Positions 16,961-44,763 of a stretch of DNA of 44,765 bases are shown here, piece after piece. The notes beneath the pieces were generated by a model. It was not told where the DNA came from, did no database searches, and was given only the letters and a program-made list of their open reading frames with translations. The stretch is from the IMG/VR virus record IMGVR_UViG_3300025015_000053, positions 1-44,765 of that record, one strand, 5' to 3'. Position 1 is the first letter of the stretch, and the number at the start of each line of letters is the position of its first letter. The DNA is from a virus. Its lineage: Duplodnaviria > Caudoviricetes. The translations under genes were made by a program, and so were the position numbers.

Positions 16961-17602
16961 TTACTCCTTTTCCTTTAAATAGCTTATACCTTTTTCATTC
17001 TGAAAGCAAGTCCAAGCCCGATCCGCTAAATCCCCTAGAGCTCCATCCACAGAAGTTATCAAAAACTGTATTCCCATCTCATCCCTAAGCTCTTGTAATA
17101 AGACTTTTATACCTTCAATATGTTCTTCTCCGTGAAGGAATTTAAAGGGTTCGTCTAGAGCAAAAAAGGGCTCTGTCCTATCATAATTCATAGCCCATAT
17201 TACTAATCTCATTAATAGAGATACTACATCATACACACCCCCACCAAAAGACTCTTCATCAAAAGAATATTTATTTTTCCCTTTAATCAAATATAGAAAA
17301 GCTTCTGGTTTATTACGATTAATTTCAAAATTAACCTCAAAAGCATATTCCTTTCCTAGTACTTCCTTTAAGCCTTTTATAACTGTATTTTCTATATAAC
17401 TTTTTATTTTATTTTGCGTTTCAATCCCAATATTAGCTATCTTTTCTCTAACCATAACTATCAATTCAATTAATTTTTTCAATCCAAAAAGCTGTTCTTC
17501 CAAAGAAGATATTAGGTTCTCCAAATAATCCTTTCTGCTTTTTTGTCCTATATACCAATCTTTTATTACATTTATATCTCCTTCGTCTGTATGTAAAGGC
17601 AT
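16961..17602 (-). CDS. SbcC/Rad50 C-terminal ATPase half
   Basis: Signature-like SFGGG, Walker B FALDEPF, FLITS. Confidence 0.8.
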   Translation of the reverse strand: MPLHTDEGDINVIKDWYIGQKSRKDYLENLISSLEEQLFGLKKLIELIVMVREKIANIGIETQNKIKSYIENTVIKGLKEVLGKEYAFEVNFEINRNKPEAFLYLIKGKNKYSFDEESFGGGVYDVVSLLMRLVIWAMNYDRTEPFFALDEPFKFLHGEEHIEGIKVLLQELRDEMGIQFLITSVDGALGDLADRAWTCFQNEKGISYLKEKE

Positions 17603-17615
17603 ATATTTTATTCTC

Positions 17616-17672
17616 CGCTAAGGTTCGTCGTGAAGGATGCTGAGAACCACACCCCTCACGACCGCGTTAGCG
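17616..17672 (+). mobile_element. attC-like site (degenerate R'')
   Basis: CGCTAAG...GTCGTGAAGG...CCCTCACGAC...GTTAGCG imperfect palindrome of 57 bp. Confidence 0.6.
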
Positions 17673-17813
17673 ATGAGAAGAACGCAGGACATCTTCACAA
17701 TCAAGACATATTTTATGTTCAGAATAATACGGAGCTAGTTTAGTCCTAAACATAGCTCCACAGAGTTTGCAAATTACTATCTTTGTTTTTATTTTTTCGT
17801 ACCAATGTCTCAT
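17667..17813 (-). CDS. 48-aa zinc-finger cassette protein
   Basis: Manual ORF MRHWYEKIKTKIVICKLCG...KICLDCED...HR; its TAA lies inside the GTTAGCG box. Confidence 0.6.
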   Translation of the reverse strand: MRHWYEKIKTKIVICKLCGAMFRTKLAPYYSEHKICLDCEDVLRSSHR

Positions 17814-17823
17814 TTATATCCTT

Positions 17824-17873
17824 TACTAACCAATCATTGGAGCAGAATAAATCCGCTCAATTTAATATTATCT
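17824..17873 (+). mobile_element. attC-like site
   Basis: R'' TACTAAC - CAATC - L'' ATTGGAGC ... L' GCTCAAT - TTAAT - R' ATTATCT (G>A). Confidence 0.7.
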
Positions 17874-18319
17874 AAAATTGACTCCACCGACCGTCTTGTA
17901 ATAAGAGACAATTTTATGTTATCTTTATTCCTCTCATACCATTCGTTAACTTCCCACTTTCCTGTTTTCGCCCGGCCTGCGCCCATCCAATCAGCAATCA
18001 TCTCAAGTATGTATTTTTGTGGCATTTCAAGCGGCTCGTAATCGCCCCGATCCCACAAAAGTACCCAGTATTGGTAATGATGCTTATTCCGTTTTTGATG
18101 GTCATTCCAGGCAACACGAAAAGCATAATCCTCTTTATATTGCTTTGATCCATCTGGCGCAAAGAAGCATCTGGCGTAGGGTAACCATTCGGAAGGTCTA
18201 AATTTGCTGAGGTCGTGGATAATTGCCCCCCAAAGCGGAGCATCAATCCTGACACAGGCGAGAAAAACAAACCATTTATGCCTAAGTTCGTATTTCAAAT
18301 AATTGAAATGTCGTCTCAT
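17834..18319 (-). CDS. HD-like protein (DUF5662-type)
   Basis: RHKWFV, IHDLSKF..SE, HQKRNKHHYQYW, EMP..YILEMIADW. Confidence 0.75.
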   Translation of the reverse strand: MRRHFNYLKYELRHKWFVFLACVRIDAPLWGAIIHDLSKFRPSEWLPYARCFFAPDGSKQYKEDYAFRVAWNDHQKRNKHHYQYWVLLWDRGDYEPLEMPQKYILEMIADWMGAGRAKTGKWEVNEWYERNKDNIKLSLITRRSVESILDNIKLSGFILLQ

Positions 18320-18339
18320 GTTTCCTCCAATAAAAACAC

Positions 18340-18395
18340 AGATAACCAGCTACTCCAGCGGTCGCTTGCAGCGCCGCTTATCTTCAGCATTATCA
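18340..18395 (+). mobile_element. attC-like site (degenerate right arm)
   Basis: R'' AGATAAC - CAGCT - L'' ACTCCAGC - GGTCGC...GCGCC - GCTTATC - TTCAGC - ATTATCA. Confidence 0.6.
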
Positions 18396-18599
18396 ATCCC
18401 ACCTTTGGGGCGACCCTTTTTTGTAAGCATCGCATAAATCAAAAATTAATATCGGAGCGCATTCGTCGCCGTCATCTGAATTCAAAATATCCCCTGTTTT
18501 GTCCTCTATTGTACAGACCAAAGTTTCTTCTTGGTATGCGTTTTGACAGGTGGCACAACATTTAACATGCCCGATACTTCTGAAATTTTCTCCTGGCAT
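18393..18599 (-). CDS. Small Cys-rich protein
   Basis: CCATC...C...C...CDAY; GGAGG SD. Confidence 0.6.
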   Translation of the reverse strand: MPGENFRSIGHVKCCATCQNAYQEETLVCTIEDKTGDILNSDDGDECAPILIFDLCDAYKKGSPQRWD

Positions 18600-18698
18600 A
18601 TTCCCTCCACCCCCTTAAAGATAAAAATAACAATTAAATGAAGGCGTCGGGAGCTTACTCCATCACATAACCAGCAGGTAGCAGAGTAGTCTCCTCAC

Positions 18699-19067
18699 TC
18701 AAACTTTAATTCCTTTCTCTTCCAGCGAATCCATTAATTCTTCATATTCTTTAGAGACCTGTTCAATTAGGCTCTCTAATTCAAACTCTATTCTTTTTTT
18801 TTCTTTTTCCAAGCCTTCTACATTCTCTATTCCAAAATCCTTTTTTAATTGATCCAAAATATTATCAATCTCAGACTGAGTTTTATCTAATTCTCTTTTT
18901 TTATATTCAATCTCTCGGCCAGCCTTATTCAATTCCTGGTTAGCCTTCTCAAGATCAAATCCTCTTTTTTTATATTCAATCTCTCGGCCAGCCTTATTCA
19001 ATTCCTGGTTAGCCTTCTCAAGATCAAATCCTCTTTTTTCTGAATTAATTTCCCTTTTCTTTAGCAT
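18699..19067 (-). CDS. Coiled-coil protein, probably the middle segment of the split SbcC
   Basis: Heptad-like charged helix; lies between sbcD and the SbcC C-terminal half. Confidence 0.55.
   Translation of the reverse strand: MLKKREINSEKRGFDLEKANQELNKAGREIEYKKRGFDLEKANQELNKAGREIEYKKRELDKTQSEIDNILDQLKKDFGIENVEGLEKEKKRIEFELESLIEQVSKEYEELMDSLEEKGIKV
18893..19039. repeat. Perfect 69-bp tandem duplication
   Basis: Copies start at 18893 and 18962 with a 9-bp partial third copy; encodes KRGFDLEKANQELNKAGREIEYK x2. Confidence 0.95.
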
Positions 19068-20043
19068 ATTTTAGAGCCTCCATCACTATTTCTTTTACTT
19101 CCTCATTTTTCTCTGTATCCATCCATTTCATTACATTATCATAAAAAGATATTCCTTCTTCTCCCTTAACTCCTTTTTTTAGCTCATCCAAAAAATCCTT
19201 AAACGACCAATCCCGAATATTTGTTTTTTCAAGGCCTATTATTTCTCTTTCTACAAATATCTCTTCCCAATCAGAACAATCAAAAGGTATCCTCTCAAAT
19301 TTAATCTCTTTTTTGTCTATTATTACAAGTTCAAATCCCGGCCTCATTATCTTACCTTCAGAATTCTTCAATCTTTCCCTATCTCCTAAACTCAATCTGG
19401 TTACTGCCCCAGGATTTAATACAGCCAAACCTCCTTCGCAACGTGAATTACAATATGGATAATGCCAATCTCCATTAATAAAAAGATCGAATATTTTTCC
19501 CTTCTCTCTATTTATTTTTCTTACCGTAGAACAAAAAACTTCATCCTTCTGGAGTTGTTTAGGAGTTAAAATTGGCTCATGAGAAAGTAATATAGAAAAT
19601 AAATTAGCGTACTCTAAACAAACCTTTGGAATTTCTTCTCCAAAAGACATTCCATAAACAACAACTTCTTTCTCTAAAACAAGAGGCTCCTTTCCAACTA
19701 TCTCGACTAATCCAGCCTTATAAAGTAAATCTAGAGCTGTTCTTTCAACAGATCTATAACTTCTCATATAAAGATCATGTTGTCCGTAAACTAAAACAAA
19801 ATTTAAGCCTTGGTCTACCTGCTTATCAAATAACCAACCAACCGTCCTATTAAGCACTTCTTTAGAAGGAGAATAGGAATCAAAAAAATCTCCCACCTGC
19901 ATAATATATTTAATCCCATTTTCCTTCGCAAACTCAGCCGTTTGATTAAGCTTATTCATCTGAGCTTCAAATATATTATCTTTCCGATTAATCGGGTTTT
20001 GATTTCTTAAATGAAGATCCCCTAAAACTATGAATTTAACCAT
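19045..20043 (-). CDS. SbcD/Mre11-like metallophosphoesterase nuclease
   Basis: GDLH, GDFFD, GQHD, SH, GDWH, NPG motifs. Confidence 0.88.
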   Translation of the reverse strand: MVKFIVLGDLHLRNQNPINRKDNIFEAQMNKLNQTAEFAKENGIKYIMQVGDFFDSYSPSKEVLNRTVGWLFDKQVDQGLNFVLVYGQHDLYMRSYRSVERTALDLLYKAGLVEIVGKEPLVLEKEVVVYGMSFGEEIPKVCLEYANLFSILLSHEPILTPKQLQKDEVFCSTVRKINREKGKIFDLFINGDWHYPYCNSRCEGGLAVLNPGAVTRLSLGDRERLKNSEGKIMRPGFELVIIDKKEIKFERIPFDCSDWEEIFVEREIIGLEKTNIRDWSFKDFLDELKKGVKGEEGISFYDNVMKWMDTEKNEEVKEIVMEALKYAKEKGN

Positions 20044-20047
20044 CTTT

Positions 20048-20536
20048 TTATTCTTTTTCCTTCCTATTAAATTTTAAAACTTTTTTGGTTTTTATCTCCT
20101 CTTCGTTCCCCCCCCTTTTCTTATCAAAAAGTTTATCTTTCATAAAAACCAAGTCAGTTGACCAAAAACCATATCTTTCTACAATCTCAATAAACTCCTC
20201 AAAATCATGAGGAATTAAACTTAATATTCTCTTTCCTTTATTATCATAACTCACATCGATATGTTTTAATTCATGAGCTATCAAAGCATCTCTTCCGTCA
20301 TCTAAAAACTGATCCCAAGCAGCTTTATAAATTTCTATAATAAAATCAACCCTCAACAAAAACCTAAACAAACCAGATAATCTATATATCTTAGCCCAAA
20401 GTTCTTTGTTCTTCTTTAAAATAGGAGAGTTCCGAAAAACCGGCTCTATATTAATTCCTTTTAAATCAGTTCTATAATTCTCAATCAAATCATAAATAAC
20501 CTTTTTAGCCTCTTCTGCCTTACTATATTCGGTCAT
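20048..20536 (-). CDS. Putative phage metallopeptidase
   Basis: ALIAHELKH (HExxH) followed by PHDFEEF..IVERYG. Confidence 0.75.
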   Translation of the reverse strand: MTEYSKAEEAKKVIYDLIENYRTDLKGINIEPVFRNSPILKKNKELWAKIYRLSGLFRFLLRVDFIIEIYKAAWDQFLDDGRDALIAHELKHIDVSYDNKGKRILSLIPHDFEEFIEIVERYGFWSTDLVFMKDKLFDKKRGGNEEEIKTKKVLKFNRKEKE

Positions 20537-20539
20537 AAT

Positions 20540-21538
20540 TTATTCTCCCCCCTTCAATAAAGCTTCTGCCTTTTTCTCATCTATCTTACCTCTACAATAT
20601 GGGCAAAACCCCAATTTAATAATTTCTTGAATAAAACCTTCTTTCATTTTATCTAAACTTACAATACAAGAATCAAGACTAGAAACTAAATCCAATTTAC
20701 TGTTTTCTTTTCTATACAACTCACTAATTCCAAAGGATATTTTATCCATCCTACCTTCACTTATTTTTAATTCTCCTACCCTATTAATAAGCTCCCTTAC
20801 CTTCCCTTCCTTATCTATCCAAACATTAATCTCTTTCTCCTCCTTCTCCAACTTATCCAATCTAGATACCAAATAAGAAAACCTCTCTAATCTAGTCTTT
20901 ATTGGAGGTATTTTATTTTCTAATTTCAATAATCTCTCTATTTTCTCTCCTATTAACTCAATCCCTTCGTATTGTTTAATTTCTTCTTTTTTATTCTCTA
21001 AATCCTTTGAAATGGATCTCTCCTGGTTTCGTTTTTCTCTTAATTCCTTCTCAAACCAACTCATTACGGAATCAATATCTACCATCCGTGTAGAGTCATT
21101 AATTACTCTCCCTACTTCTCCAGGGCTTTCTCTAATCAAAAAATGATTAGATAATTGAGATTGATAATTTATAGAAGACAAATTTAGAGCCTTCTTAATT
21201 GGTTCGGGAACTTCGCTTCCAATCTTATTGAAATCAAATCTTTTTTCATTATCTTTCTTATGATAAAGAAAATAACCATTAAAATTTTTCTCTAAATTTT
21301 TTATTCTAGCTAGATCCCATTCTCCCTTGCTTATAAATACCCTCACTTCTGAATCTATATTCTTATCGCATTTGAAACCTTCTCCTAAAGGCCGATTACT
21401 AAACATCCAATTCAAAGCCCTCAGAATAGATGTCTTTCCTCTATCAGTCTCACCTATTATTACATTTATACCCGGAGACAACTCCAATTCTGTATTCTCA
21501 TGAGATTGATAATTTTGTATTTTAATTTTATCTATCAT
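20540..21538 (-). CDS. SbcC/Rad50 N-terminal half with zinc hook
   Basis: IQNYQSH, Walker A GETDRGKT, Q-loop NYQSQ, coiled coil, terminal CPYC. Confidence 0.85.
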   Translation of the reverse strand: MIDKIKIQNYQSHENTELELSPGINVIIGETDRGKTSILRALNWMFSNRPLGEGFKCDKNIDSEVRVFISKGEWDLARIKNLEKNFNGYFLYHKKDNEKRFDFNKIGSEVPEPIKKALNLSSINYQSQLSNHFLIRESPGEVGRVINDSTRMVDIDSVMSWFEKELREKRNQERSISKDLENKKEEIKQYEGIELIGEKIERLLKLENKIPPIKTRLERFSYLVSRLDKLEKEEKEINVWIDKEGKVRELINRVGELKISEGRMDKISFGISELYRKENSKLDLVSSLDSCIVSLDKMKEGFIQEIIKLGFCPYCRGKIDEKKAEALLKGGE

Positions 21539-26857: not shown

Positions 26858-29800
26858 TTACTCCTTTTCCCTAAACCTCCTCTGCCCAACCTTCTTAGCC
26901 AAGTCATAAAATCTACCCACCTTCTCTATTGATTCTTTCAAAAGCGGTAATTTATCTGCCTCATACAAAACTGCTGCAGGATGAATACTATAAACTATCC
27001 AACACCCCCAATCAAAATTCCATTCCACAGAAGCATTCCTATCAAGAATACCTGAAGACTGACCAGAAAAAAATTCTGCTGCAGTATTTCCCAATGCTAA
27101 AATCAACAAAGGCCTTACCATTTCAATTTCTTTTTCTAACCAACTCTTACATTTTTTAACTTCAACAGAAGAAGGCTTTCTATTATCAGGAGGCCTGCAT
27201 TTTATTACATTCGTAATATATGCCTGATTTCTATTTAATCCTATATCATTTAAAATTTCCATCAATAATATCCCAGCTTTCCCAACAAATGGAACCCCTT
27301 GGCTTTCTTCCTCCCTACCTGGGGCCTCTCCTATTATCATAAATCTGGCTTTGCCTTCAATATAATCCGCTAACACAGGCCCTTTACCTTCCTTACCAAG
27401 TCCACAAGAATAACAATCACAAATCTCTTCCCACAAATCAACAATAGAATTTGTAACCAAAAAATAATTATTCAAATTAAACCACTGCTGGCTAAATTGG
27501 CCTTGCTGAAATGTTAAACACTGATCTAATCTATCTATAGAAACAAGATCATCAACAAAAAAATTGTCCTTGCCTATTATTTTTATGCCTCCCCTAACCA
27601 AGCAAATACTCCCTGCCAGTGATTCTAATAATTCTTTATTTGACCGATATAAATCAGAACCATACACCACCATCATAAAATCAGTAGCATCTTCAAAATT
27701 GCCATATATTCCTCCTAAATAATCTGAGACTATCCTTCTGCCCTCAGAAGCCCCTGCCACCCCACCTAAAAATGCTACCTTTTGCTTAAATCCATATTTT
27801 ATATCTTTTACCAAACCCAAGAGATAAAGCTCTTGTAAAGATTTTTGTTTACTATTCAATTCATTTATACCTAACAACATCAGCTTTTCTTTAAAAAGAT
27901 ATTTTCTCAAATTATCTGTAGATAAAACCTGAGATAAAAAACTAACAGGAAAAATAGACACCCCTCCCATCTCAGAAATAAGCATCTGTTGTTTTTCTTT
28001 CTCTTCAAAATCTTCTGCTGAAAATAAATCTTCTTTAAATACAGTATTTGATAACAAATCTCCTGACTCTCCAAAAAGTCTATTTTTACCCCTCAGCCTT
28101 AAAAGGTTCCCTTTTCCTTTCTGTATTGCTCCACCCAAATAAAGAGGAAGAGCTTCTATTAATTTTTTTCTATTAATACTTATATTATCAAACAACCCTG
28201 CCTTAGCCAGAATCTGAACCTTTTGTTTATTCACTTTCCTTCTATCTATTCGATATAAAAAATCCTCAATATTTTTAAAAGAGCCTGATTCTCTACTATC
28301 TAATATTGCCCTTGCTGCTATTTCCCCCAGACCTTTTATTTCTAACAATCCTACCTGCAAAGTATTTTCCAATACTATTTTCCAATGAAAATTACTAATA
28401 TTAATATCAGGGGGTAAAAATTTTACCCCCAGTCTCAAAGCATCTTTAATTGCTGCAATAACCTTATTCTTATCTTCAGTCAAAGCTAGATAGCTAGCAA
28501 AAAATTCAGCAGTATAATATATCTTACAATAACAGCACCAATATCCTATCAATGTATAGGTAGCGGAATGACTCCTATTAAAAGAATAAGAACCCGAATA
28601 ACTCATTTCCTTAAATAGGACCCTTGAAATTTTTTCTGGAATATTATGCCGGTTTTTACACCCTTCTACAAATTGTTCTGTAAATTTAGCAAATCTAGCT
28701 TGTCCCTGTGATTTACTAATAATTTTTCGTATAGTGTCTGCCGTTTTCCACGTAAACCCTGCCAATTCGTATAAAGCTAACATGATTTGTTCTTGATATA
28801 TTATCAATCCATAAGTATCTCTAGTCAACTCCTCCATATATGGGATCATATATTCTATTTTCTCCAACCCTCGTCTTCTTTGGACATAAGAAGTCATTAT
28901 CCCTGATTTAATGCCTCCTGGCCGATGCAATGTATTGGCAGCAACCAAAGTCTCAAATTCTGTTATTGGAGCCAGACTTCTCAACAGTTTAATAAATCCT
29001 TCACTTTCCATTTGAAAAACTGCTAAGGCATTTCCTGTCCCTAATTCTTCAAACACCTTTTTATCATCTAGAGGAATAGATTCAAAATCCAGCTCTTTTC
29101 CTTTAGTCTCTAATACCAATTGTTTTACTAGACTTAATATAGACAGAGTCCGCAGTCCCAAAATATCCAGCTTCATTAATCCTAAATCATCCAGATCATA
29201 TTTATCATAAGCTACCAGGGTTTCTCCACCATTGGTTTCTGTAATTAGAGGAGCTCTTTCTTTCAGGGAAACAGCAGACACTACTACTGCGGCTGCGTGT
29301 CTGCCCCTTTGCCGGACTAATCCCTCAAATTTCTTTGCCTGCCCCACTACTTGGGGATATTTTTGCTCAAATCTTTTACAGCCTTCGAAGATTTGGAAAG
29401 AATCCTCCAAGCTAAAATCTGTCCTTTCATCCCCCTTAGTCCTTTGCACAATCAATTTTGTCACATCATTGACATCCTTTTGAGGAACCTTGAAAACTCT
29501 TGCCACATCCTTTAAAGCCATTCTAGCTTTCATTTCTCCCCAGGTAACCACGCCCGCAACGTGATCTTTTCCATATTTCCTTTTCAGATAATCTATTACT
29601 TCTCCTCTTCTCTTATCTTCAAAATCCATGTCTATATCTGGCAGATCAATCCTTGCTGGAGAAATAAATCTATCAAATAACAATTTATATTTCACCGGAT
29701 CTAGCCGAGTTATATCCAATAAATAACATACCAATGAACCTGACGCAGAGCCTCTGCCTGGCCCAACAAAAATACCCATTTTTCTACAATGATTTATCAA

Positions 29801-30859
29801 ATCCTGAACTATCAGAAAATATCCACTAAACCCTAACTCTATTATTCTATCCAACTCATAAATCAATCGTTCTGAATATTCATCAAAATTCTTTTTTTTT
29901 CTAAAATGATCATCTCCCATAATCTTATTAAAACATAGCTCTATCAACTGTTCATCAGTCGTCTTATTCTCCTCTAAATTTCCCAGAAATTTGCTTCTGA
30001 CCGAAGGCAAGGAAACAAGCAAAGGAGAAAATTCCCAACAGCATTTTTCTGCTACTTCTGTGGTTCTATGGAGAGCATCTAAATATATCTTTTCAGACAT
30101 ACCCAATTGCTCAAAAGAATAAATCATTTCCTCTTCTGACTTCAAAAACAACCCCTCTACATCAAATTTCCACCTCTTAGGATCATCAAGAGTAGTCTTC
30201 CGCTGTAAAGCTAATAAAATTTCGTGAGAAAAGGCCTCTTCTTTTTCTATGTAATGGACATCATTAGAAGCTAACAAACCAATCCCCAATCGCCTGGACA
30301 GATCCAATGCTCTATAATTAATTTCAATCTGGTTTTTAAAATCCAAAGGCATAATTTCCAAATACAAATCCTCTCCAAATCGTTCTCTCAATCCTATCAC
30401 TTTTTCTTCATAATTAGGATGACTCAATACTCCAGAACTACAAGCAGTAGCAACAATAACATCTTTTAATCCTAATATATCATCCCAATCAATTCTAGGC
30501 TTTCTAAAAAAATTAAAAGAAGCCTTAGTTAAAGCCAAGGAAATAGATTGCAAACCCACCCATGACTTAGCCAAAACTAAAACATGAAATCTCTGCTCTC
30601 TCTCTTGCTTATTTCTTTCCGCCCTTAAACCAGGCCAATTTAAATCATCAACTACATAAAACTCACAGCCTATTATAGGCCTAATTCCAGCCTCTTTACA
30701 AGACCGAATAAATCTAAATCCTCCCGAAATACTAGCGTGATCAGTAATACCCAAATATGGAAATTTCATCGCTGCAGCTTTAGCTACCAAATCTTTTATT
30801 TTACAGAAACCATCAAGTAACGAAAACTCAGTGTGAATATGCAGTGGGCAAAATTCCAT
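26858..30859 (-). CDS. dnaE: DNA polymerase III alpha with C-terminal family-4 uracil-DNA glycosylase domain
   Basis: PHP (HIHTEFSLLDG, TDH), GPGRGSASGS, PDIDMDF, KLDILGL, SFNRSH; C-terminus CYSCGL, IGEAPG, NVIKCRPPDNR, IHPA. Confidence 0.93.
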   Translation of the reverse strand: MEFCPLHIHTEFSLLDGFCKIKDLVAKAAAMKFPYLGITDHASISGGFRFIRSCKEAGIRPIIGCEFYVVDDLNWPGLRAERNKQEREQRFHVLVLAKSWVGLQSISLALTKASFNFFRKPRIDWDDILGLKDVIVATACSSGVLSHPNYEEKVIGLRERFGEDLYLEIMPLDFKNQIEINYRALDLSRRLGIGLLASNDVHYIEKEEAFSHEILLALQRKTTLDDPKRWKFDVEGLFLKSEEEMIYSFEQLGMSEKIYLDALHRTTEVAEKCCWEFSPLLVSLPSVRSKFLGNLEENKTTDEQLIELCFNKIMGDDHFRKKKNFDEYSERLIYELDRIIELGFSGYFLIVQDLINHCRKMGIFVGPGRGSASGSLVCYLLDITRLDPVKYKLLFDRFISPARIDLPDIDMDFEDKRRGEVIDYLKRKYGKDHVAGVVTWGEMKARMALKDVARVFKVPQKDVNDVTKLIVQRTKGDERTDFSLEDSFQIFEGCKRFEQKYPQVVGQAKKFEGLVRQRGRHAAAVVVSAVSLKERAPLITETNGGETLVAYDKYDLDDLGLMKLDILGLRTLSILSLVKQLVLETKGKELDFESIPLDDKKVFEELGTGNALAVFQMESEGFIKLLRSLAPITEFETLVAANTLHRPGGIKSGIMTSYVQRRRGLEKIEYMIPYMEELTRDTYGLIIYQEQIMLALYELAGFTWKTADTIRKIISKSQGQARFAKFTEQFVEGCKNRHNIPEKISRVLFKEMSYSGSYSFNRSHSATYTLIGYWCCYCKIYYTAEFFASYLALTEDKNKVIAAIKDALRLGVKFLPPDINISNFHWKIVLENTLQVGLLEIKGLGEIAARAILDSRESGSFKNIEDFLYRIDRRKVNKQKVQILAKAGLFDNISINRKKLIEALPLYLGGAIQKGKGNLLRLRGKNRLFGESGDLLSNTVFKEDLFSAEDFEEKEKQQMLISEMGGVSIFPVSFLSQVLSTDNLRKYLFKEKLMLLGINELNSKQKSLQELYLLGLVKDIKYGFKQKVAFLGGVAGASEGRRIVSDYLGGIYGNFEDATDFMMVVYGSDLYRSNKELLESLAGSICLVRGGIKIIGKDNFFVDDLVSIDRLDQCLTFQQGQFSQQWFNLNNYFLVTNSIVDLWEEICDCYSCGLGKEGKGPVLADYIEGKARFMIIGEAPGREEESQGVPFVGKAGILLMEILNDIGLNRNQAYITNVIKCRPPDNRKPSSVEVKKCKSWLEKEIEMVRPLLILALGNTAAEFFSGQSSGILDRNASVEWNFDWGCWIVYSIHPAAVLYEADKLPLLKESIEKVGRFYDLAKKVGQRRFREKE

Positions 30860-31711: not shown

Positions 31712-32446
31712 TCAATCTCCATATTCCAAAATGCAACCAGAAAGATATTTACATCTCTCTTTCTCACTAACCAAATAACCAATAAAATCAGCAAGAATTA
31801 CTGGATCTGTCTCTTCGCCACAAACTATAGAATTTGACTGATACTCTTTAGCGTATTCTTCTGTCCAACTTCTTACTTCCAAGGTTCTTTTCTCTATATA
31901 TTTACTCATACCAGTCCCCTCCAATTTATTTGGAGCAACACCAAATACAGTAACACCATATTTTTTAGTAAGCTCTCTAGCAAGCTGTTTCGTCATTATA
32001 TATGCAGCCCCTTTGCTCGCATTATAAGCTAAACTAGCCGTCATAGGAATCCGATAGGCATTACTAATTATATTTACCACGATCCCCCTAGATTGTTTCA
32101 ACTGATTTAAAAACTGTTTTGTGACTAAATATATTGCTTTTGCATTAACACCAAGAACAGAATCCCAATCAGCTTCAACCAAATTCTCCAAATAATTTAT
32201 CTTATTAATTCCAGCATTATTAATCAGAATATCTACAACAGGCACCTGCTGAGCACAATCAAATATTTCTTTAGCATTAGAAACATCACAGATAATATTT
32301 CTTATTCCCACCACAGCATCCTCTTTATTAGGCAGAGAAATAGCAAGACTTATCACAGCAATTCCCCGATTATTTAAATTTTTAGAAATCTCTAATCCAA
32401 GTCCTTGGCAGCCTCCTGTCACCACTGCTATCCTGCTTCTATTCAT
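31712..32446 (-). CDS. Short-chain dehydrogenase/reductase
   Basis: TGGCQGLG, INNAG, NIIS, YNASK; start reassigned to MNRSRIAVV. Confidence 0.9.
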   Translation of the reverse strand: MNRSRIAVVTGGCQGLGLEISKNLNNRGIAVISLAISLPNKEDAVVGIRNIICDVSNAKEIFDCAQQVPVVDILINNAGINKINYLENLVEADWDSVLGVNAKAIYLVTKQFLNQLKQSRGIVVNIISNAYRIPMTASLAYNASKGAAYIMTKQLARELTKKYGVTVFGVAPNKLEGTGMSKYIEKRTLEVRSWTEEYAKEYQSNSIVCGEETDPVILADFIGYLVSEKERCKYLSGCILEYGD

Positions 32447-32468
32447 AACAATCTCTCCTCTTAACCAA

Positions 32469-33206
32469 TTAAATTGGCTGAACTTCATGTTTTGTTATTA
32501 GCCAAATCTTTTTTGCTTCAGTCTTCATCTCTTTTCTCTCTAATAAAACTTCTTTTATTGGACAGCCAGTATAATTAGGAAATGCACAAATTCCTTTATC
32601 TACACAATAGACCTCCAAAAATGACTCTGCCCAAAAATGTATTTTTATAACCTCTTCCCTAATCTTCCGAGCCACATCTTGAAATTCCCCTTGAGCCTTA
32701 TAACACAACCTAATATTCATTATTGTACTCAAGGCCCTCAAGTTAACCTTAAACAATATATTAGTCAAAATATTAGTAGGCAGTAATCCTCTAGCATCCT
32801 GTATATTTGCCCCTTTACCAAGACAGGCCTTATAATTATCCCTAATAGCCTCCATCCCCTTATGATATTCTTCCAAATCTTTACAAGTATTCGCAGCCAA
32901 ATATTCAAACTCAGAAGCGTCTATAACCCTTTGTGCCTCTTGAGCAAAAGATACTCCCACTCTATGCCTCACCAATTGGTGAGTAAAAGCTCTAGAAACC
33001 CCTATAATCAAAAATACATAATCTACAAATTCCCAGCTACTATTTATTGTTCCTTTAATATATTGAAGTTCTTTCAATTTCTCCTTTTCGGATAATTTTT
33101 TAATATCATCTAACTCTGCACTCTCTGTTAAAAGCCTAGTTTGTTTACTAAAAATAAGCAATTCTAAAGCATCAGAAGTATAATTCACCAATTTAACATC
33201 CATCAA
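32469..33206 (-). CDS. thyX: Divergent flavin-dependent thymidylate synthase (ThyX family)
   Basis: GVSRAFTHQLVRHR, QDARGLLP, NLRAL, RLCYKAQGEF; signature Ser appears replaced (AQEAQRV). Confidence 0.82.
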   Translation of the reverse strand: MMDVKLVNYTSDALELLIFSKQTRLLTESAELDDIKKLSEKEKLKELQYIKGTINSSWEFVDYVFLIIGVSRAFTHQLVRHRVGVSFAQEAQRVIDASEFEYLAANTCKDLEEYHKGMEAIRDNYKACLGKGANIQDARGLLPTNILTNILFKVNLRALSTIMNIRLCYKAQGEFQDVARKIREEVIKIHFWAESFLEVYCVDKGICAFPNYTGCPIKEVLLERKEMKTEAKKIWLITKHEVQPI

Positions 33207-34216
33207 ACCCCTCCCCTTCTTGAAAAATATTTTTGGGATAAAACAGGAGATTCAATATACTTTTTAATTTTTTGGGCATCCTGCAATATTTCATCAGCTT
33301 TCAAGTTTTTCCATAAAGCAAACCTCCCCAAACTATAAATATTATAATCTGTTGTAAGTTTATAAAGAAGTGTCTGCCTAACTTCATCTTGCAAAGGCTT
33401 TATTTTACCATATTTCTGAATAAAGCAATCAAATGTTCCTTTTCCAGGCAAATGGATCTTTGACAATCCAAATGCTCCGAGAACCTCTAAAAGTTCCTCT
33501 TCTTTGCATTCTCTAATAGCTTCTATAATAATCTCCTTAAAATCAATAGAAGCTCTATAAACAGGAAACTCCAAATCAGGAAAATAAATCGTTTGACATA
33601 ATTCATTAAATTCAGGCTCAAAATCTGCTCTATATATAAATATAGGACTAGATTTAAATTTTATTCTTTCATCTAAATCTAGCCCCAAACAATTAACCAC
33701 AAATTCCATAGGCAATGTACTAATAATTGTATCACAATCTATCTCCCCCTTCCCTTTACAATCCTCGGCCTCATAACTTACCCAACCAAGACCCACCTGA
33801 GACACCCTACCAGGTAAAACCTTAATCCAACCTCTGTTTATTCTACTTTCTCTGAAATGGCCCCGGGTCTTAGGCAACCATCTCATCCTCGGGGTCAAAT
33901 CTTTAATTGACTTTATTATCAAAGCTTCTACTGTTTTAAGACTATACAAATTTGAAAATAATATATTAGATTCAGTATACACCTTCCCTCGATAATATAT
34001 AGCCTTATAAACAATAATCTCTATAAGATCAATACCCAACAAGGCCCCTAAATCTGCATTCTGAAACCGGAATAAAGCCTTATGATCCCAATACTTACTG
34101 TCCCCTATAATGCAGATTTCATTCAGGATTTCTTTTTCCCACGTAGATAATACTGCCTGCATTATAGAGCCAGCTAAACCCAACCCTAATATTACTATTT
34201 TCTTTTTATTAGCCAT
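33203..34216 (-). CDS. FAD-dependent oxidoreductase (Glf/amine oxidase-like fold)
   Basis: IVILGLGLAG Rossmann motif, IISTLP, YSLGRFALWK. Confidence 0.7.
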   Translation of the reverse strand: MANKKKIVILGLGLAGSIMQAVLSTWEKEILNEICIIGDSKYWDHKALFRFQNADLGALLGIDLIEIIVYKAIYYRGKVYTESNILFSNLYSLKTVEALIIKSIKDLTPRMRWLPKTRGHFRESRINRGWIKVLPGRVSQVGLGWVSYEAEDCKGKGEIDCDTIISTLPMEFVVNCLGLDLDERIKFKSSPIFIYRADFEPEFNELCQTIYFPDLEFPVYRASIDFKEIIIEAIRECKEEELLEVLGAFGLSKIHLPGKGTFDCFIQKYGKIKPLQDEVRQTLLYKLTTDYNIYSLGRFALWKNLKADEILQDAQKIKKYIESPVLSQKYFSRRGGV

Positions 34217-40599: not shown

Positions 40600-40628
40600 A
40601 TTATACAACAAAGAAAAGAAAAAGCCAA
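40600..40628 (-). promoter_or_regulatory. Sigma-70-type promoter
   Basis: TTGGCT-N17-TATAAT upstream of the replication operon. Confidence 0.65.
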
Positions 40629-40648: not shown

Positions 40649-41095
40649 CTACACTACGGATTTATGATCAATCATTCTGAACTTGGTTTCTTCTAGTTGT
40701 TCGTACAATGTTTTGCCCGTATTCATTTGAAGATAGGGCATAAAAACTTCTTGAATTTGAACCATCTCGGTATCCACAAGGGCTAATTGTGCTTCAATCC
40801 AGCGAAGAATCTGTCTCCAGGCCACCCGGCGGGCCTGTGTTTCATCATTACGGTTATAGGGTCTTCTCTTTCTCTTGGATTGCAATTTTTTAAAAATCGC
40901 TTGCCATCGGCAGGGGAGACGAAAGGGGATATGCTGCCCGTTGAATAGAACCCTGAATGAGACAGCTATAACTTCGCCTTTTTCATATTCTGTCAGGACA
41001 GCACTTGCTCCATAATTGCCCAATAACCGCTGAATTTCTCCCACGGTTTGACTGGCAGAAATTTTAGTGGTTTCCATAAAAAGAGTTTTAACCAT
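40649..41095 (-). CDS. Conserved phage hypothetical protein
   Basis: TKISASQTVGEIQRLL...QARRVAWRQILRWIEAQL; SD sits just after the GTTAGAC box. Confidence 0.75.
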   Translation of the reverse strand: MVKTLFMETTKISASQTVGEIQRLLGNYGASAVLTEYEKGEVIAVSFRVLFNGQHIPFRLPCRWQAIFKKLQSKRKRRPYNRNDETQARRVAWRQILRWIEAQLALVDTEMVQIQEVFMPYLQMNTGKTLYEQLEETKFRMIDHKSVV

Positions 41096-41108
41096 CTTAA
41101 AAACCTCC

Positions 41109-41169
41109 GTCTAACAAACCACTTGACCCGACCGTCAAAAGCCCCGGCAAGTCAGCCTTTACGTTCTCC
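41109..41169 (+). mobile_element. attC site
   Basis: R'' GTCTAAC - AAACC - L'' ACTTGACC - CGAC... - L' AGTCAGC - CTTTAC - R' GTTCTCC. Confidence 0.75.
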
Positions 41170-41401
41170 CCTTCTTTCTCGGTGGCATAATTTTCTTAAC
41201 TTCTCCATCCTCATATTCTATCTGGATTCTTTTCCTCTCTACCTTTTCTTTTTCTTCTTCTTCCTCAAAAGCTACCCGTAATAACCCTTTAACTTTCTCA
41301 AATAGCTTATCTGCAATAGTTGCCATATCTTTATCCCACAGCCCTAAAATTGCTTTCTGGATACAGTCTAAAGCTAAATTCCTTGCGGTTTCAGGAAACA
41401 T
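41159..41401 (-). CDS. Hypothetical protein
   Basis: 80-aa ORF ending inside the attC; GGAGG SD. Confidence 0.65.
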   Translation of the reverse strand: MFPETARNLALDCIQKAILGLWDKDMATIADKLFEKVKGLLRVAFEEEEEKEKVERKRIQIEYEDGEVKKIMPPRKKGRT

Positions 41402-41403
41402 AA

Positions 41404-41559
41404 TTATCCTCCCTCACTAATATATTTATGGAACCGAAGCTGGGGTTCCCACGCTACCAGAATCTTATTCTCCAGACCCATCTTCTTTTCATATCTCTGC
41501 CTTTTACGGGCCCGGGTATTATGGGTACGGTCTCGTTGCTTGCGGTATGTCCTGGCCAT
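41404..41559 (-). CDS. 51-aa Arg-rich protein
   Basis: Manual ORF MARTYRKQRDRTHNTRARKRQRYEKK...; AAGGAG SD. Confidence 0.55.
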   Translation of the reverse strand: MARTYRKQRDRTHNTRARKRQRYEKKMGLENKILVAWEPQLRFHKYISEGG

Positions 41560-41735
41560 TAGTACTCCTTGGGATATGGAAGATCTCCCTCGTTTATGTC
41601 ATACTCAAGATCCTCATCGCTGTTATTCTCTGCTACTTCCTTATGCTTTTATGGCTCCACTATCTGATTTGAAATATATCTTCTTCAATGTCACACATTA
41701 CCTCTCATTTCGTACTTACTCTTAGGTAGACATCA

Positions 41736-41753
41736 ACCTAACGTCTGTTAGCA
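41736..41753 (+). mobile_element. Collapsed attC or bare recombination point
   Basis: ACCTAAC-GTCT-GTTAGCA; GTTAGCACT is the 9-bp reverse complement of AGTGCTAAC at 42132-42140. Confidence 0.55.
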
Positions 41754-42113
41754 CTCACAGAAATCCACACTCTCACTATAATATCCATTCGATTCACCAT
41801 ACCACCGAATTGTTACATAACCTTTCAGGGTGGCAAATTTATAGAATGTCCATGTGAAACTTTCCTGATATTCTTTATTTATCCCTTCTGGATTCTCGTT
41901 GCTCGTCTCCTCTTCAGCCATCAGAAGTGGGGAACCTACTAAATCCGCCAGATTGCCAATGACATCCTCAACAGTAACAGATTCACTACAATCATATGTG
42001 TGATATAGTTTGTATTTTTCCCCTTTATCTGTGGTAAAAATTATCTCCTCATTGTCTTTGTTCTCAACACTCATCATCGTTTTGCCTATCAGGTCTTTCA
42101 ATTTTGCTCCCAT
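41748..42113 (-). CDS. Conserved phage protein in an inverted cassette
   Basis: YH.YDCSESV..EDVIG.L.DLVGSPL..AEE, TWTFYKFATLKGYVTIRWYGESNGYYSE, a family common in phages; TAA lies in the GTTAGCA box. Confidence 0.8.
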   Translation of the reverse strand: MGAKLKDLIGKTMMSVENKDNEEIIFTTDKGEKYKLYHTYDCSESVTVEDVIGNLADLVGSPLLMAEEETSNENPEGINKEYQESFTWTFYKFATLKGYVTIRWYGESNGYYSESVDFCEC

Positions 42114-42133
42114 ATTATCCTCCTATAAAAAAG

Positions 42134-42190
42134 TGCTAACAAGGCATTCCAGCGGATCACTAAGGGCTCCCGCTGATTTCTACGTTATGT
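42134..42190 (+). mobile_element. attC site
   Basis: R'' TGCTAAC - AAGGC - L'' ATTCCAGC ... L' GCTGATT - TCTAC - R' GTTATGT. Confidence 0.85.
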
Positions 42191-42364
42191 TTTCTGTATT
42201 CTACCATCATATTCAAAAACAAGCCCCACGTCTACTCTAACCTTATGCTTCTTAGATTTGGCGTGTTTTGCGGCTATCGCTTGCCCATTTTTATATTCTT
42301 CTGTCCGCCACGCACAATCCTCACATTCTGCCACCACATGGATTACCCCTCCCTTTTTCTTCAT
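42185..42364 (-). CDS. C2H2-like small protein in an inverted cassette
   Basis: Start reassigned to MKKKGGV (GGAGG SD); CEDC...H....H; TAA lies in the GTTATGT box. Confidence 0.7.
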   Translation of the reverse strand: MKKKGGVIHVVAECEDCAWRTEEYKNGQAIAAKHAKSKKHKVRVDVGLVFEYDGRIQKT

Positions 42365-42381
42365 GGACCCTCCAATAAAAC

Positions 42382-42441
42382 ACATAACTAGTCACTCCAC
42401 CTAACCGCCAGGATCGGCGGCAGGTGAGCTTGTCGTTCGGG
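42382..42441 (+). mobile_element. attC site
   Basis: R'' ACATAAC - TAGTC - L'' ACTCCACC ... L' GGTGAGC - TTGTC - R' GTTCGGG. Confidence 0.85.
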
Positions 42442-42444
42442 GAA

Positions 42445-42576
42445 TCAAATTTGAGTCAGAATTTGCAACGATCCCATTGTGATCCACCAATGATCCTCAT
42501 TTATTTCCAATCCAAGCGTCCCTAATAAAATCGCTATACAGATCCCTTTAATTATCGGAATCAGCAAATTTTCCAT
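42445..42576 (-). CDS. 43-aa membrane peptide
   Basis: Manual ORF MENLLIPIIKGICIAILLGTLGLEINEDHWWITMGSLQILTQI; GGAGG SD. Confidence 0.55.
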   Translation of the reverse strand: MENLLIPIIKGICIAILLGTLGLEINEDHWWITMGSLQILTQI

Positions 42577-42608
42577 GATCTCCTCCAATAAACGGGTTTT
42601 CATTTTGT

Positions 42609-42929
42609 TTACCAATCCCCAGCCCCCTTTTCTACCCAGGCTTTAGAAATCTGAAACAACTCTTTCTCTAATACCATTAGTCGATCTGTACTACTTATGG
42701 CTTTATCTACGTCCTGGGTCTTAAAAAAGAAGGCCCTTTCTCGGTTCCAGTGGAGATACAACTCATTCTCGGCAAAAGTCTCTTGTAGGTCATTCCGACA
42801 ATCCTGGCATAGGATGGTATGATAATGTCCTACAAGAACTATTGGTTGAATGATCTTCCCAAGGTCATTATTGGTTTTACATCGGGCACAAAAAGAATAC
42901 ATAACAATCTCCTTTCTCAAATAAGTCAA
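42609..42929 (-). CDS. Zinc-finger hypothetical protein
   Basis: CARC...CQDC; the true start is probably MYSF. Confidence 0.6.
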   Translation of the reverse strand: MTYLRKEIVMYSFCARCKTNNDLGKIIQPIVLVGHYHTILCQDCRNDLQETFAENELYLHWNRERAFFFKTQDVDKAISSTDRLMVLEKELFQISKAWVEKGAGDW

Positions 42930-43054
42930 TGTTCCTACTTATCCCTTTGTCTCTTGAAGATTCCTTCTCGTATCGCTATATTTCTCACAATGGCAAGAAA
43001 AAGAAACGCTCATGGTTTATTATCTCCGGTTGAGTAGGCCGATGCAGTCAGAGA

Positions 43055-44530
43055 CTAGTCACAATCTTCCAATAGCCTTCTTTTTAATCTGATAGAATTG
43101 AAGTCCTGAATATGCTTAACTACCTTGGAACCAAACTTTTTATTTATCATATTTAAATATTTTTCACTACCAAAGTATCGATGAAAAGCCTTATCTCTGA
43201 AAGCCAGGATTTCTTTGGCAAGAAGATTTTGGTTAGACAATGGATAAGTTTCGTATCCATGTTGAGAGTATCCTTCCCATGATAAAGGTAATCTAAAAGG
43301 TTCCTCTTTATTAATTTTTTCATATAATTGACTACCAGGATATGCCATTGTACAATAGAAATTAGCAAATTCTGTATTGAGCTCTAGAGCCAGGTCTAAA
43401 GTCTCTTGCATAGATTGCAAAGTATCATTAGGCATTCCAAACATATAATTTGTACAGGTAAACATAAAATAATCTTGTGTCATTTTTATTGTTTCTTTTG
43501 CTTTTCTGTTTTTAATATCATTAATTGATTCTATGCCTATACCTATCCATTTTACTCCAGCTTCAGCCATAGAAAAAAGAGTGTTGTCATTAAGGGTGTC
43601 TAATCGAGCATAAATAGACAGATTAAGATTGTATCTTCTTTCTTTTATTTGGTCTGCAAAGGACTCTAATTTCTTAATATCATAAGTAAATAAATGATCA
43701 TGTATTCTGATATTTCTTACTTCATATTTCAGTACTAATTCATCTATCCATCTTAGAATAGTTTTTAGTTCCCAATCTCTTCCTTCTCCCTTATGCAAAT
43801 GATTAGCACAGCAATAAAAACAATTATTTGGACAGCCAAGGCTAGTATAAATAGCAGCATAAGGAGATCTAACATCACTAAAATCCTCCTTTTTACTATC
43901 CTTAAAATATTGAAAGCAATGAAAGTTATGGGATCGGTAATAATCCAATGAGGGAATAAGATCCCAAGAATAACCAATTAATTCTTTATTAAGATCTTCT
44001 ATAAATACCCTCTCAGAGGCACAGAACAGCCCTAAATTTGGGGTTTTAAAAGCTAACTCTATAGAACTATTACCTTTAGATTTTCCCCTTATATAATCAA
44101 GAATATCGATTATTTGGTATGGGCCTTCACCAGTTATTACAAAATCAATAGCCTCTTCTTCTAAAGTTCTCTCTGGCAAAGCTGATGGATGAATACCTCC
44201 CATAGCTATAGGTATATCCTTATTAACAGCTTTAATATCTTTAGCTATTTGGCTAGCTATAGGCATAGTCTGAGTGCTAGCTGAGGGATGGTGGCCAAAG
44301 ACCCATATAACTATAAGCTTAGGCTCATAATAATAAATTAAAGCTCCCGCTGTTTTTTCTTTCCATTCTGATATATTGCAATCGTGTATTGCTACTGAAT
44401 ACCCTTGTCTTCTTACATAATCAGCCAATAATAATGTATAAGCTGGAGGGCATATAGCAGTTAGATTATTAGATAATTCTTGATAAATGCCTTTTTGGCC
44501 TCCTGGATGAATAAATAATATATCTATCAC
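43055..44530 (-). CDS. Cobalamin-binding radical SAM enzyme (class B methyltransferase-like)
   Basis: N-terminal B12-binding domain (PPAY..LA, GGIHPSALP, GEG); TSLGCPNNCFYC; GIES; AYPGSQLY. Confidence 0.9.
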   Translation of the reverse strand: MIDILFIHPGGQKGIYQELSNNLTAICPPAYTLLLADYVRRQGYSVAIHDCNISEWKEKTAGALIYYYEPKLIVIWVFGHHPSASTQTMPIASQIAKDIKAVNKDIPIAMGGIHPSALPERTLEEEAIDFVITGEGPYQIIDILDYIRGKSKGNSSIELAFKTPNLGLFCASERVFIEDLNKELIGYSWDLIPSLDYYRSHNFHCFQYFKDSKKEDFSDVRSPYAAIYTSLGCPNNCFYCCANHLHKGEGRDWELKTILRWIDELVLKYEVRNIRIHDHLFTYDIKKLESFADQIKERRYNLNLSIYARLDTLNDNTLFSMAEAGVKWIGIGIESINDIKNRKAKETIKMTQDYFMFTCTNYMFGMPNDTLQSMQETLDLALELNTEFANFYCTMAYPGSQLYEKINKEEPFRLPLSWEGYSQHGYETYPLSNQNLLAKEILAFRDKAFHRYFGSEKYLNMINKKFGSKVVKHIQDFNSIRLKRRLLEDCD

Positions 44531-44565
44531 AATTTAACCCCCCTCATGGATTCCTTCCCTTCTAA

Positions 44566-44763
44566 TCAACGATTTCTTTTTTTTTCATTAAGCTTGGCTA
44601 AATCAGCTAAAGTAAGATGGCTAATATTCGGTGTAAAACATGATATCGCATCTCTAGTGTCTACATGTCTAATCATATTCAACGGATCAAAACGTCTTTG
44701 CAATTTATTCATTATTGGCCCATTATTTTCCAAATCTTCGAGAATAATATCAATAATTTCCTG
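44566..44763 (-). CDS. C-terminal end of an unidentified gene (starts outside the window)
   Basis: Open frame QEIIDIILEDLENNGPIMNKLQRR...KKRNR-stop. Confidence 0.5.
   Translation of the reverse strand, partial: QEIIDIILEDLENNGPIMNKLQRRFDPLNMIRHVDTRDAISCFTPNISHLTLADLAKLNEKKRNR

Follow-up and report, generated by a model that had tools for sequence, protein, structure and literature searches.

A partly decayed phage attC array whose cassette genes run opposite to those of bacterial integrons

Integrons have been described as bacterial platforms in which genes lacking a promoter are inserted downstream of the promoter Pc in the correct orientation. Here we describe an array of integron-type attC sites, at positions 40649..42576 of the IMG/VR virus record IMGVR_UViG_3300025015_000053 (Duplodnaviria; Caudoviricetes), in which the cassette genes point the other way; the whole 44,765 bases of that record (CheckV completeness 49%) are referred to below as the window. 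Judged by its sequence, the region is a real phage CALIN (cluster of attC sites lacking integron-integrase) with two intact, reversed cassettes, and comparison across viral and bacterial contigs indicates that cassette inversion is general in phages and the pattern widespread in uncultured ones. The explanation that we favor, and consider probable, is a short, partly decayed phage attC array, with genes opposite to those of bacterial cassettes, which would have been moved at G|TT (the bar marking the crossover) by an integron integrase (IntI) supplied from outside the sequenced part of this genome.

The three attC sites lie on the + strand at 41109..41169 (attC1), 42134..42190 (attC2), and 42382..42441 (attC3). 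Their R'' boxes read GTCTAAC, TGCTAAC, and ACATAAC and their R' boxes G|TTCTCC (with the G at 41163), G|TTATGT, and G|TTCGGG, respectively; all three have AAC in R'', GTT in R', pairing of L'' with L', and spacings of 5 and 5-6 nt. An extra T is found in L'' of attC1, L'' of attC2 is ATTCCAGC with an extra C, and that of attC3 is ACTCCACC, with two extra bases in the left arm. Thus, each site has an extra-helical base (C, C, T) near L'' on the + left arm, as stated in the original prediction for this DNA, which was made from the sequence without database searches. A scored attC scanner, written after the sites were known, ranks them as the top three of the window (attC1 17.5, attC2 16, attC3 21.5) and returned no match scoring at least 15 in 893,746 shuffled bases; it took the place of an initial loose scan, dropped for giving many false sites. 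A covariance model built from 17 canonical bacterial attC sites with canonical genes, and run unfiltered on both strands, recovered attC2 at 34 bits (E 1.5e-6), attC3 at 17.7 bits (E 0.024), and attC1 at 14.2 bits (E 0.19), with all eight of its matches in the window on the + strand (the three attC sites, those at 18340 and 17824, and three weaker ones). This check, which had been suggested at the outset, upholds attC2 and the common polarity and leaves attC3 and attC1 weak. The polarity read by the model is the same as in the TJE1 sites, the top strands of which have been published and served as a control, and fits the rule that extra bases sit near L'', as given in the accessible part of Nivina et al., 2016 (PMC5027507). 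With three sites in 1.3 kb, the region falls under the definition of a CALIN, namely at least two attC on one strand, within at most 4 kb, and no neighboring intI.

As originally observed, the - strand carries every open reading frame (ORF) of the region, against the + polarity of the attC sites. Cassette C (41748..42184, +) runs from the G|TT at 41747 to the G at 42184 and combines an inverted DUF7448 gene with attC2, its core GTTAGCACT (41747) complementing AGTGCTAAC (42132) at 9/9 positions. Cassette D (42185..42435, +) runs from the G|TT at 42184 to the G at 42435 and combines an inverted 59-aa gene with attC3, with GTTATGT (42184) complementing ACATAAC (42382) at 7/7. Both core matches had been called correctly, and these two are the only intact cassettes of the region; the broader claim, by which all genes in 40649-42576 would be cassettes, is not supported. 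The DUF7448 gene (phrog_2650, 121 aa; 41748..42113, -) and the 59-aa gene (42185..42364, -), whose product has a CxxC motif and nine homologs with no family, both have a start close to R'', preceded by a GGAGG site, and a TAA stop inside G|TTA. They lie on the attC bottom strand, and not in the canonical layout of a top-strand gene reading towards its attC. The cassette-circle signature of matching cores is itself silent on polarity because it is symmetric. The expectation of phage-like cargo is borne out by DUF7448, the clusters of which are 90-100% viral and which is present in 159 GenBank phage records; for cassette D, no informative relative was found.

The evidence for a general inversion comes from two directions. 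Relatives of DUF7448 were taken as the best 80 of 185 viral loci, 79 of them besides G001, a near-identical record of the same phage. Covariance-model matches occur at eight of the 79 loci and at none of the other 71, and 24 of the 25 matches at DUF7448 loci are opposite to the gene. The gene is found in four other inverted arrays, each with different neighbors, and the DUF7448 cassette recurs in G009, L003, L004, L006, and L030 with boundaries at G|TT. In G006, a complete 41-kb phage, the scored scanner finds nine attC sites interspersed with inverted genes, and the integron-integrase model matches nothing. The other direction is a scan of viral and bacterial genome contigs with one attC pattern, giving at least 128 and at least 126 loci, respectively; cassettes with core matches of at least 6/7 were oriented by a simple ORF rule for genes led by a ribosome-binding site (RBS), and these and all further cassette counts are among the matches listed. 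Of 108 viral cassettes, 65 have such genes on the bottom strand only, three on the top only, one on both, and 39 on neither, while the 66 bacterial cassettes, from which L277 and L290 were left out as prophage-like, give 4, 16, 1, and 45. Keeping L277 and L290 and using another rule, the bottom-to-top ratio is 68:3 in the viral and 12:32 in the bacterial set. A second, attC3-type pattern at 29 loci gave five attC; the gene on the R'' side is inverted at four of these, including the twin of this phage, and the other 24 loci turned out not to be attC.

The side of the crossover was examined with 383 sites with flanks, by means of pairs that share one flank only and are not independent of each other, since a strict two-sided cassette comparison yielded five pairs only. 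Pairs sharing the R''-side flank have the same attC in 31 of 66 cases, and those sharing the R'-side flank in none of 37. As the attC travels with the R''-side gene, the comparison places the crossover at G|TT, as in ordinary integrons, and indicates that the genes are truly reversed in their cassettes. In 15 of 32 alignments, homologous cassettes are preceded by different attC sites and their homology sets in at GTT, with identity up to 97.6%, and the proposed comparison of relatives at G|TT accordingly points to exchange at that position. The DUF7448 cassette of the window shares its first 13 bases with the corresponding cassette of G009, which has no attC of its own and is preceded by an unrelated attC-like arm; this start of homology at GTT is insufficient alone because the boundary is also the end of the gene.

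Complete integrons of the same kind were found in other phages. A search with an alignment of four IntIs, three of them viral, gave 309 viral IntI-like stretches; 47 of the best 80 have attC, and 106 of the 111 attC sites upstream of intI run against it, in standard geometry. Among 48 viral records that were searched, all with the attC pattern, three have an IntI above the TIGR02249 cut-off, as does one of the 12 that are at least 90% complete. Genes within 1.5 kb upstream of intI point towards and away from it in a ratio of 73:5 in 31 viral loci (from 37 given, which were chosen for upstream attC) and of 4:11 in 11 bacterial loci (from 25 given, with L642 left out). Many viral IntI loci have a conserved attI about 110-175 bases from intI, followed by the cassette body and then attC in the standard order. 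In a tree of 98 IntI sequences built by a quick method, 47 viral sequences and one genome sequence form one clade (SH-aLRT 99); the genome locus in question, L642, is prophage-like, inverted, and situated beside a second integrase. One such IntI aligns over 24-335 with VchIntIA (PDB 2a3v), insertion included (E 2e-84). The IntI of G050 groups with bacterial IntIs and its cassettes are nonetheless inverted, and therefore the inversion would follow the phage life rather than one enzyme lineage. The host is one possible source of the integrase rather than an established one: phages have an IntI clade and attI of their own, about 40% of this phage's genome lies outside the DNA covered, and no excision variant occurs in four runs.

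Several further integrase loci were observed. G005 has a divergent IntI-like gene (L090 14852-16671; 212 bits, below the cut-off) upstream of a canonical DUF7448 cassette and near terminase genes. In a phage operon of G022, a truncated intI runs on into an unrelated C-terminus (L371 15307-16044), and in KX853513 an IntI-like gene annotated as xerD lies within a co-oriented run of phage genes (L694 3995-4993). A second viral IntI-like group (L432-L453; 18 rows, support 82), mostly without scanner-detected attC, may use other sites. In a provirus record with broken intI pieces, short cassettes that are nearly identical and share a single type of attC are repeated in tandem (L132 235-1570).

The remainder of the region lacks matching cores. 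The 148-aa phage gene (phrog_17260; 40649..41095, -) has an RBS at 41104-41108, directly adjoining R'' of attC1. The other end of the gene, where the stop is without a GTT box, has no corresponding G|TTAGAC, and for lack of that partner core the gene is at most a candidate cassette. Its homologs at 56 other loci have one partial covariance-model match only, 2 kb away. An ESM Atlas search gave no function for this protein or for DUF7448. The 80-aa gene (41159-41401, -), the stop of which is in the attC1 spacer, and the 51-aa gene (41404-41559, -) have no PHROG or Pfam match; as the cores bounding the segment 41164-41746 do not match, these two genes, between attC1 and 41747, would be native or decayed DNA. 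Accordingly, the placing of ORF stops inside GTTA boxes is right for two of the four genes (those at 41748 and 42185) and wrong for the 80-aa and 148-aa genes. No full attC ends at 41747, where only ACCTAAC-GTCT precedes; the collapsed site (41722..41753, +; TTAGGT...ACCTAAC-GTCT-G|TTAGCA) would be either an attC without its arms or an attI relic. It has the AAC + 4 nt + GTT spacing and part of the upstream motif of phage attI, and is 5 nt shorter. Four genes including one for a B12-binding radical SAM protein (42445..44733, -) lie between attC3 and a further site, attC4, and since the cores of these two sites do not match, this stretch is probably native DNA.

The site attC4 lies about 45 bp past the end of the window, in G001, where a Dam methylase gene, likewise inverted and with a 7/7 core, lies between attC4 and attC5 (L088 10879-11427); attC4 folds at z -5.9, and the 77-aa gene adjoining it is native-looking and has no partner core. 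The right arm of attC1 is of the attC4 family and its left arm is unrelated, from a different attC family. The attC1/attC4 right-arm pattern gave eight loci, with a single other viral record bearing attC among them. The attC4 family also occurs with canonical genes in the metagenome contigs L497, L520, and L538, one of them beside two-component-system genes, and these contigs suggest a host-side cassette pool. Two-faced cassettes, comprised of a canonical gene after G|TT and an inverted gene starting at R'', were seen in the same contigs (L497 1158-2280, L538 803-2526, L520 900-1442), with convergent genes and cores of 7/7 or 6/7; three of four were found by script and three more by eye, against one of 108 in the viral pattern set.

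A second, decayed array lies on the + strand at 17616..18599, with attC-like sites at 17616-17672 (read by eye), 17824-17873 (13.6 bits in the covariance model), and 18340-18395 (19.1 bits). Its genes, of 48 aa, 161 aa (DUF5662), and 68 aa, are likewise inverted, and two of its sites have ATT in place of GTT. In other contigs of three runs, the 68-aa gene is followed by an attC of its own (R'' TGATAAC), which loose contig ends suggest also ends in ATT; the ATT-ending sites may represent either locked cassettes or a variant core. A native-looking 213-aa ATPase gene (16961-17602) abuts a single attC without a partner core. Around this array (16961-21538), an SbcC-like ATPase is apparently split into frames around SbcD, with the array preceding the C-terminal half.

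We propose that an ordinary integron integrase would cut out and insert the cassettes at G|TT, recombining the folded bottom strand, which would be the coding strand here. An upstream phage promoter would transcribe the array as part of a one-directional operon and, as it would read through the array, only inverted cassettes would be expressed and kept. In complete phage integrons the phage promoter probably reads on into intI, replacing Pc, which could not express the phage cassette genes because of their direction, towards attI and intI; in the present array, too, a Pc would be antisense to the genes. The layout, with the RBS next to R'' and the genes all on one strand, is compatible with expression from phage operon promoters, and it likely lets phages swap accessory genes inside their own operons. 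Phages would keep and trade their own pool of inverted cassettes, with those devoid of intI, like the present one in 56 kb, borrowing IntI from a host integron or a co-resident phage. A bottom strand on the lagging template raises excision, according to the accessible part of Loot et al., 2017 (PMC5371416); the - strand of the window is G-rich and, if it is the leading one, the bottom strands would lie on the lagging template, a speculative step of the scheme. The fuller version, in which phages run an integron system with their own IntI clade, attI, backwards pool, and phage promoters, exchange with hosts through two-faced cassettes, and make cassettes at stop codons, strikes us as tentative and rather doubtful.

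A number of observations weigh against the reading of a mobile phage array with inverted genes. With the covariance model both attC1 and attC3 are below 20 bits, and free folding of the - strands gives z values of only -1.0, -1.0, and -1.6 for the three sites. The bottom strand folds better than the top in attC1 (-6.4 vs -3.2 kcal/mol), with no such gain in attC2 (-6.6 bottom vs -6.8 top) or attC3 (-9.4 bottom vs -9.5 top). The sites are present where predicted, but the description of them as well-formed is not supported by the weak folding or by attC1, which is weak and probably chimeric. Neither intI nor a remnant of it was found in the window, as had been noted at the outset for intI, or in G001 (best E 2.4), and the intI in cis that marks a complete integron is absent from these 56 kb. 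No excision or cassette-skipping joints were found in four runs, searched as contigs, which drop rare variants; a loose contig end at 41165, considered as a rearrangement, was rejected as it corresponds to the paralogous attC4. G000 and G001 are near-identical. On the comparative side, the DUF7448 cassette of G005 is canonical and beside a co-oriented IntI-like gene, TJE1 has a CALIN that is canonical by the covariance model, and the bacterial locus L638 has genes facing intI. With the simple ORF rule, the share of cassettes left unoriented is about 36% in the viral and 68% in the bacterial set; contigs were counted without lineage dereplication, so that contigs, like pairs, are not independent. 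Three of the four sequences in the IntI query were viral, the sample of bacterial sequences comprised 27, and a quick method was used for the tree.

Much of this would be accommodated by a frozen relic, with cassettes that are old or were gained from other phages by homologous recombination, and sites that are now inactive and kept as intergenic spacers. The chimeric attC1, the collapsed site at 41747, the two ATT sites of the second array, the weak folding, the missing intI and joints, and the DUF7448 cassette of G009 that lost its own attC are all in line with it. We nevertheless consider it unlikely, in light of the perfect cores of cassettes C (9/9) and D (7/7), the strong folding of attC4 and the 7/7 core of the adjoining Dam cassette, and the tendency of contigs to lose the rare variants in which joints would be seen. 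Cassette making in progress, which we regard as quite improbable, supposes that IntI puts attC circles at secondary GTT sites formed by the reverse complement of TAA-C stops in native phage genes. Insertion at secondary sites by IntI was reportedly described by Loot in 2024. Such insertion would spare the gene, put its stop in R', and give inversion without selection for expression. Stops in R' are indeed found in 31 of 108 viral vs 4 of 74 bacterial cassettes, 71 of 79 DUF7448 loci are without attC, and the 148-aa gene, the 213-aa ATPase, and the 77-aa gene, all native-looking, each have just one adjoining attC and no partner core. However, 87 of 138 viral cores are perfect at 7/7, which fresh bracketing would not yield; R'' directly beside the native RBS is left unexplained, and loss of attC gives the same pattern.

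The remaining two alternatives concern the nature of the sites themselves. If they were mirror sites, the cassettes would be normal and another recombinase would act on the other strand, with the crossover at the 3' end of the gene. The core signature and the stop-in-R-box pattern are symmetric and so compatible with this, and the attC differs in 35 of the 66 pairs with the same R''-side flank. Conversely, the attC never moves with the R'-side flank (0/37), attI, cassette body, and attC are in the standard order, and the neighboring recombinases exceed the integron-integrase cut-off and align with VchIntIA; hence, mirror sites seem very improbable. We give practically no credence to the hairpins being terminators or RNA regulatory elements that are attC-like by chance: their folding energies are modest and they are placed between operon genes, but no terminator match was found at any of the attC sites and no Rfam match in the window, and the idea is at odds with the model matches, the matching cores, and the exchange at GTT.

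The phage itself is present in groundwater and soil runs. G001 matches it at 99.97-100% identity in the overlap with the window and extends 11.5 kb past its right end, the two together making up the 56 kb of phage DNA covered; an 88.7-kb metagenome contig (L490, L491) matches the phage at 100%. The window encodes a portal, terminase, DnaE polymerase, primase, helicase, and methylase, with nearly all genes on the - strand. Promoter and terminator scans were at chance level (17 promoters vs 14.1 in shuffles). A sigma-70-like match (TTGGCT-17-TATAAT; 40600..40628, -; 10/12 matches), which is a lead only, sits at the downstream edge of the region and faces the replication genes. BLAST of attC3 against plasmids returned chance fragments only. 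Elsewhere in the genome, one 1066-aa frame (592-3792) fuses the portal to Mu gpF-like head morphogenesis and topoisomerase IB domains, and the DnaE polymerase (26858-30859) has a uracil-DNA-glycosylase-superfamily domain at its C-terminus. Genes for radical SAM, aminotransferase, a TPP-enzyme/glycosyltransferase fusion, short-chain dehydrogenase, and ThyX (31712-34216, 43055-44530, and L088 3279-9210) form a set that suggests a DNA or sugar modification pathway.

If the favored explanation of inverted, exchangeable phage cassettes is true, many uncultured phages would shuffle accessory genes, such as those for DNA methyltransferases, via reversed cassettes using the same recombination chemistry, and this would be the phage-side counterpart of integron-borne defense genes. 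The present window would be a small, partly decayed example without an integrase of its own in the 56 kb examined. The origin of cassettes is largely unknown according to the accessible part of Loot et al., 2017 (PMC5371416), and the occurrence of the same phage gene with and without attC would offer a handle on how cassettes are made.

With canonical integrons, such as class 1 and sedentary chromosomal ones, these arrays share the R''/L''/L'/R' architecture, extra bases near L'', G|TT, and cores, as given in the accessible parts of Nivina et al., 2016 (PMC5027507) and Cury et al., 2016 (PMC4889954); related phages likewise have intI opposite to the attC polarity, and attI. Unlike in those integrons, the phage genes are on the bottom strand, begin at R'', often stop in R', and read towards attI and intI, and the cargo is of phage type. 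In the inverted-integrase integrons of the Treponema type (Cury et al., 2016; same part), genes and intI point the same way, as in phages; however, there the intI is flipped relative to attC and the genes are canonical, whereas phage integrons keep intI in its standard orientation and have the genes flipped inside the cassettes. The layout of G005 is similar to that of the Treponema type. Host integrons within prophages, namely Vibrio Va_90-11-286_p16 and Shewanella M16-3, also place intI and cassettes in a phage record, per the accessible part of Qi et al., 2023 (PMC9892861), but are pieces of host integrons, with the M16-3 genes pointing away from intI, in contrast to the phage integrons described here, with genes towards intI and a mostly separate IntI clade. 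The closest known systems are the phage CALINs of the same study, which reports integrons as rare in phages (21 of 10,705 genomes) and describes 17 phage CALINs, with IntI1 recombining five sites. Like the present region, these (e.g., TJE1 and MW202573) have at least two attC without intI and small accessory and DNA methyltransferase genes as cargo. The accessible part of that paper calls TJE1 and PH101 typical and makes no mention of inverted genes, a phage IntI clade, or an attI family, and a literature search outside subscription journals found no description of inverted phage cassettes or of the phage IntI clade. One published CALIN, that of MW202573 (L692 2069-3738), is inverted, with five model matches on the - strand among + genes, and as this array is inverted by the covariance-model test, Figure 2D of Qi et al. 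may show the inversion. Phage CALINs were already known; the inversion of their genes would be the new element, though one published CALIN proves to be inverted.

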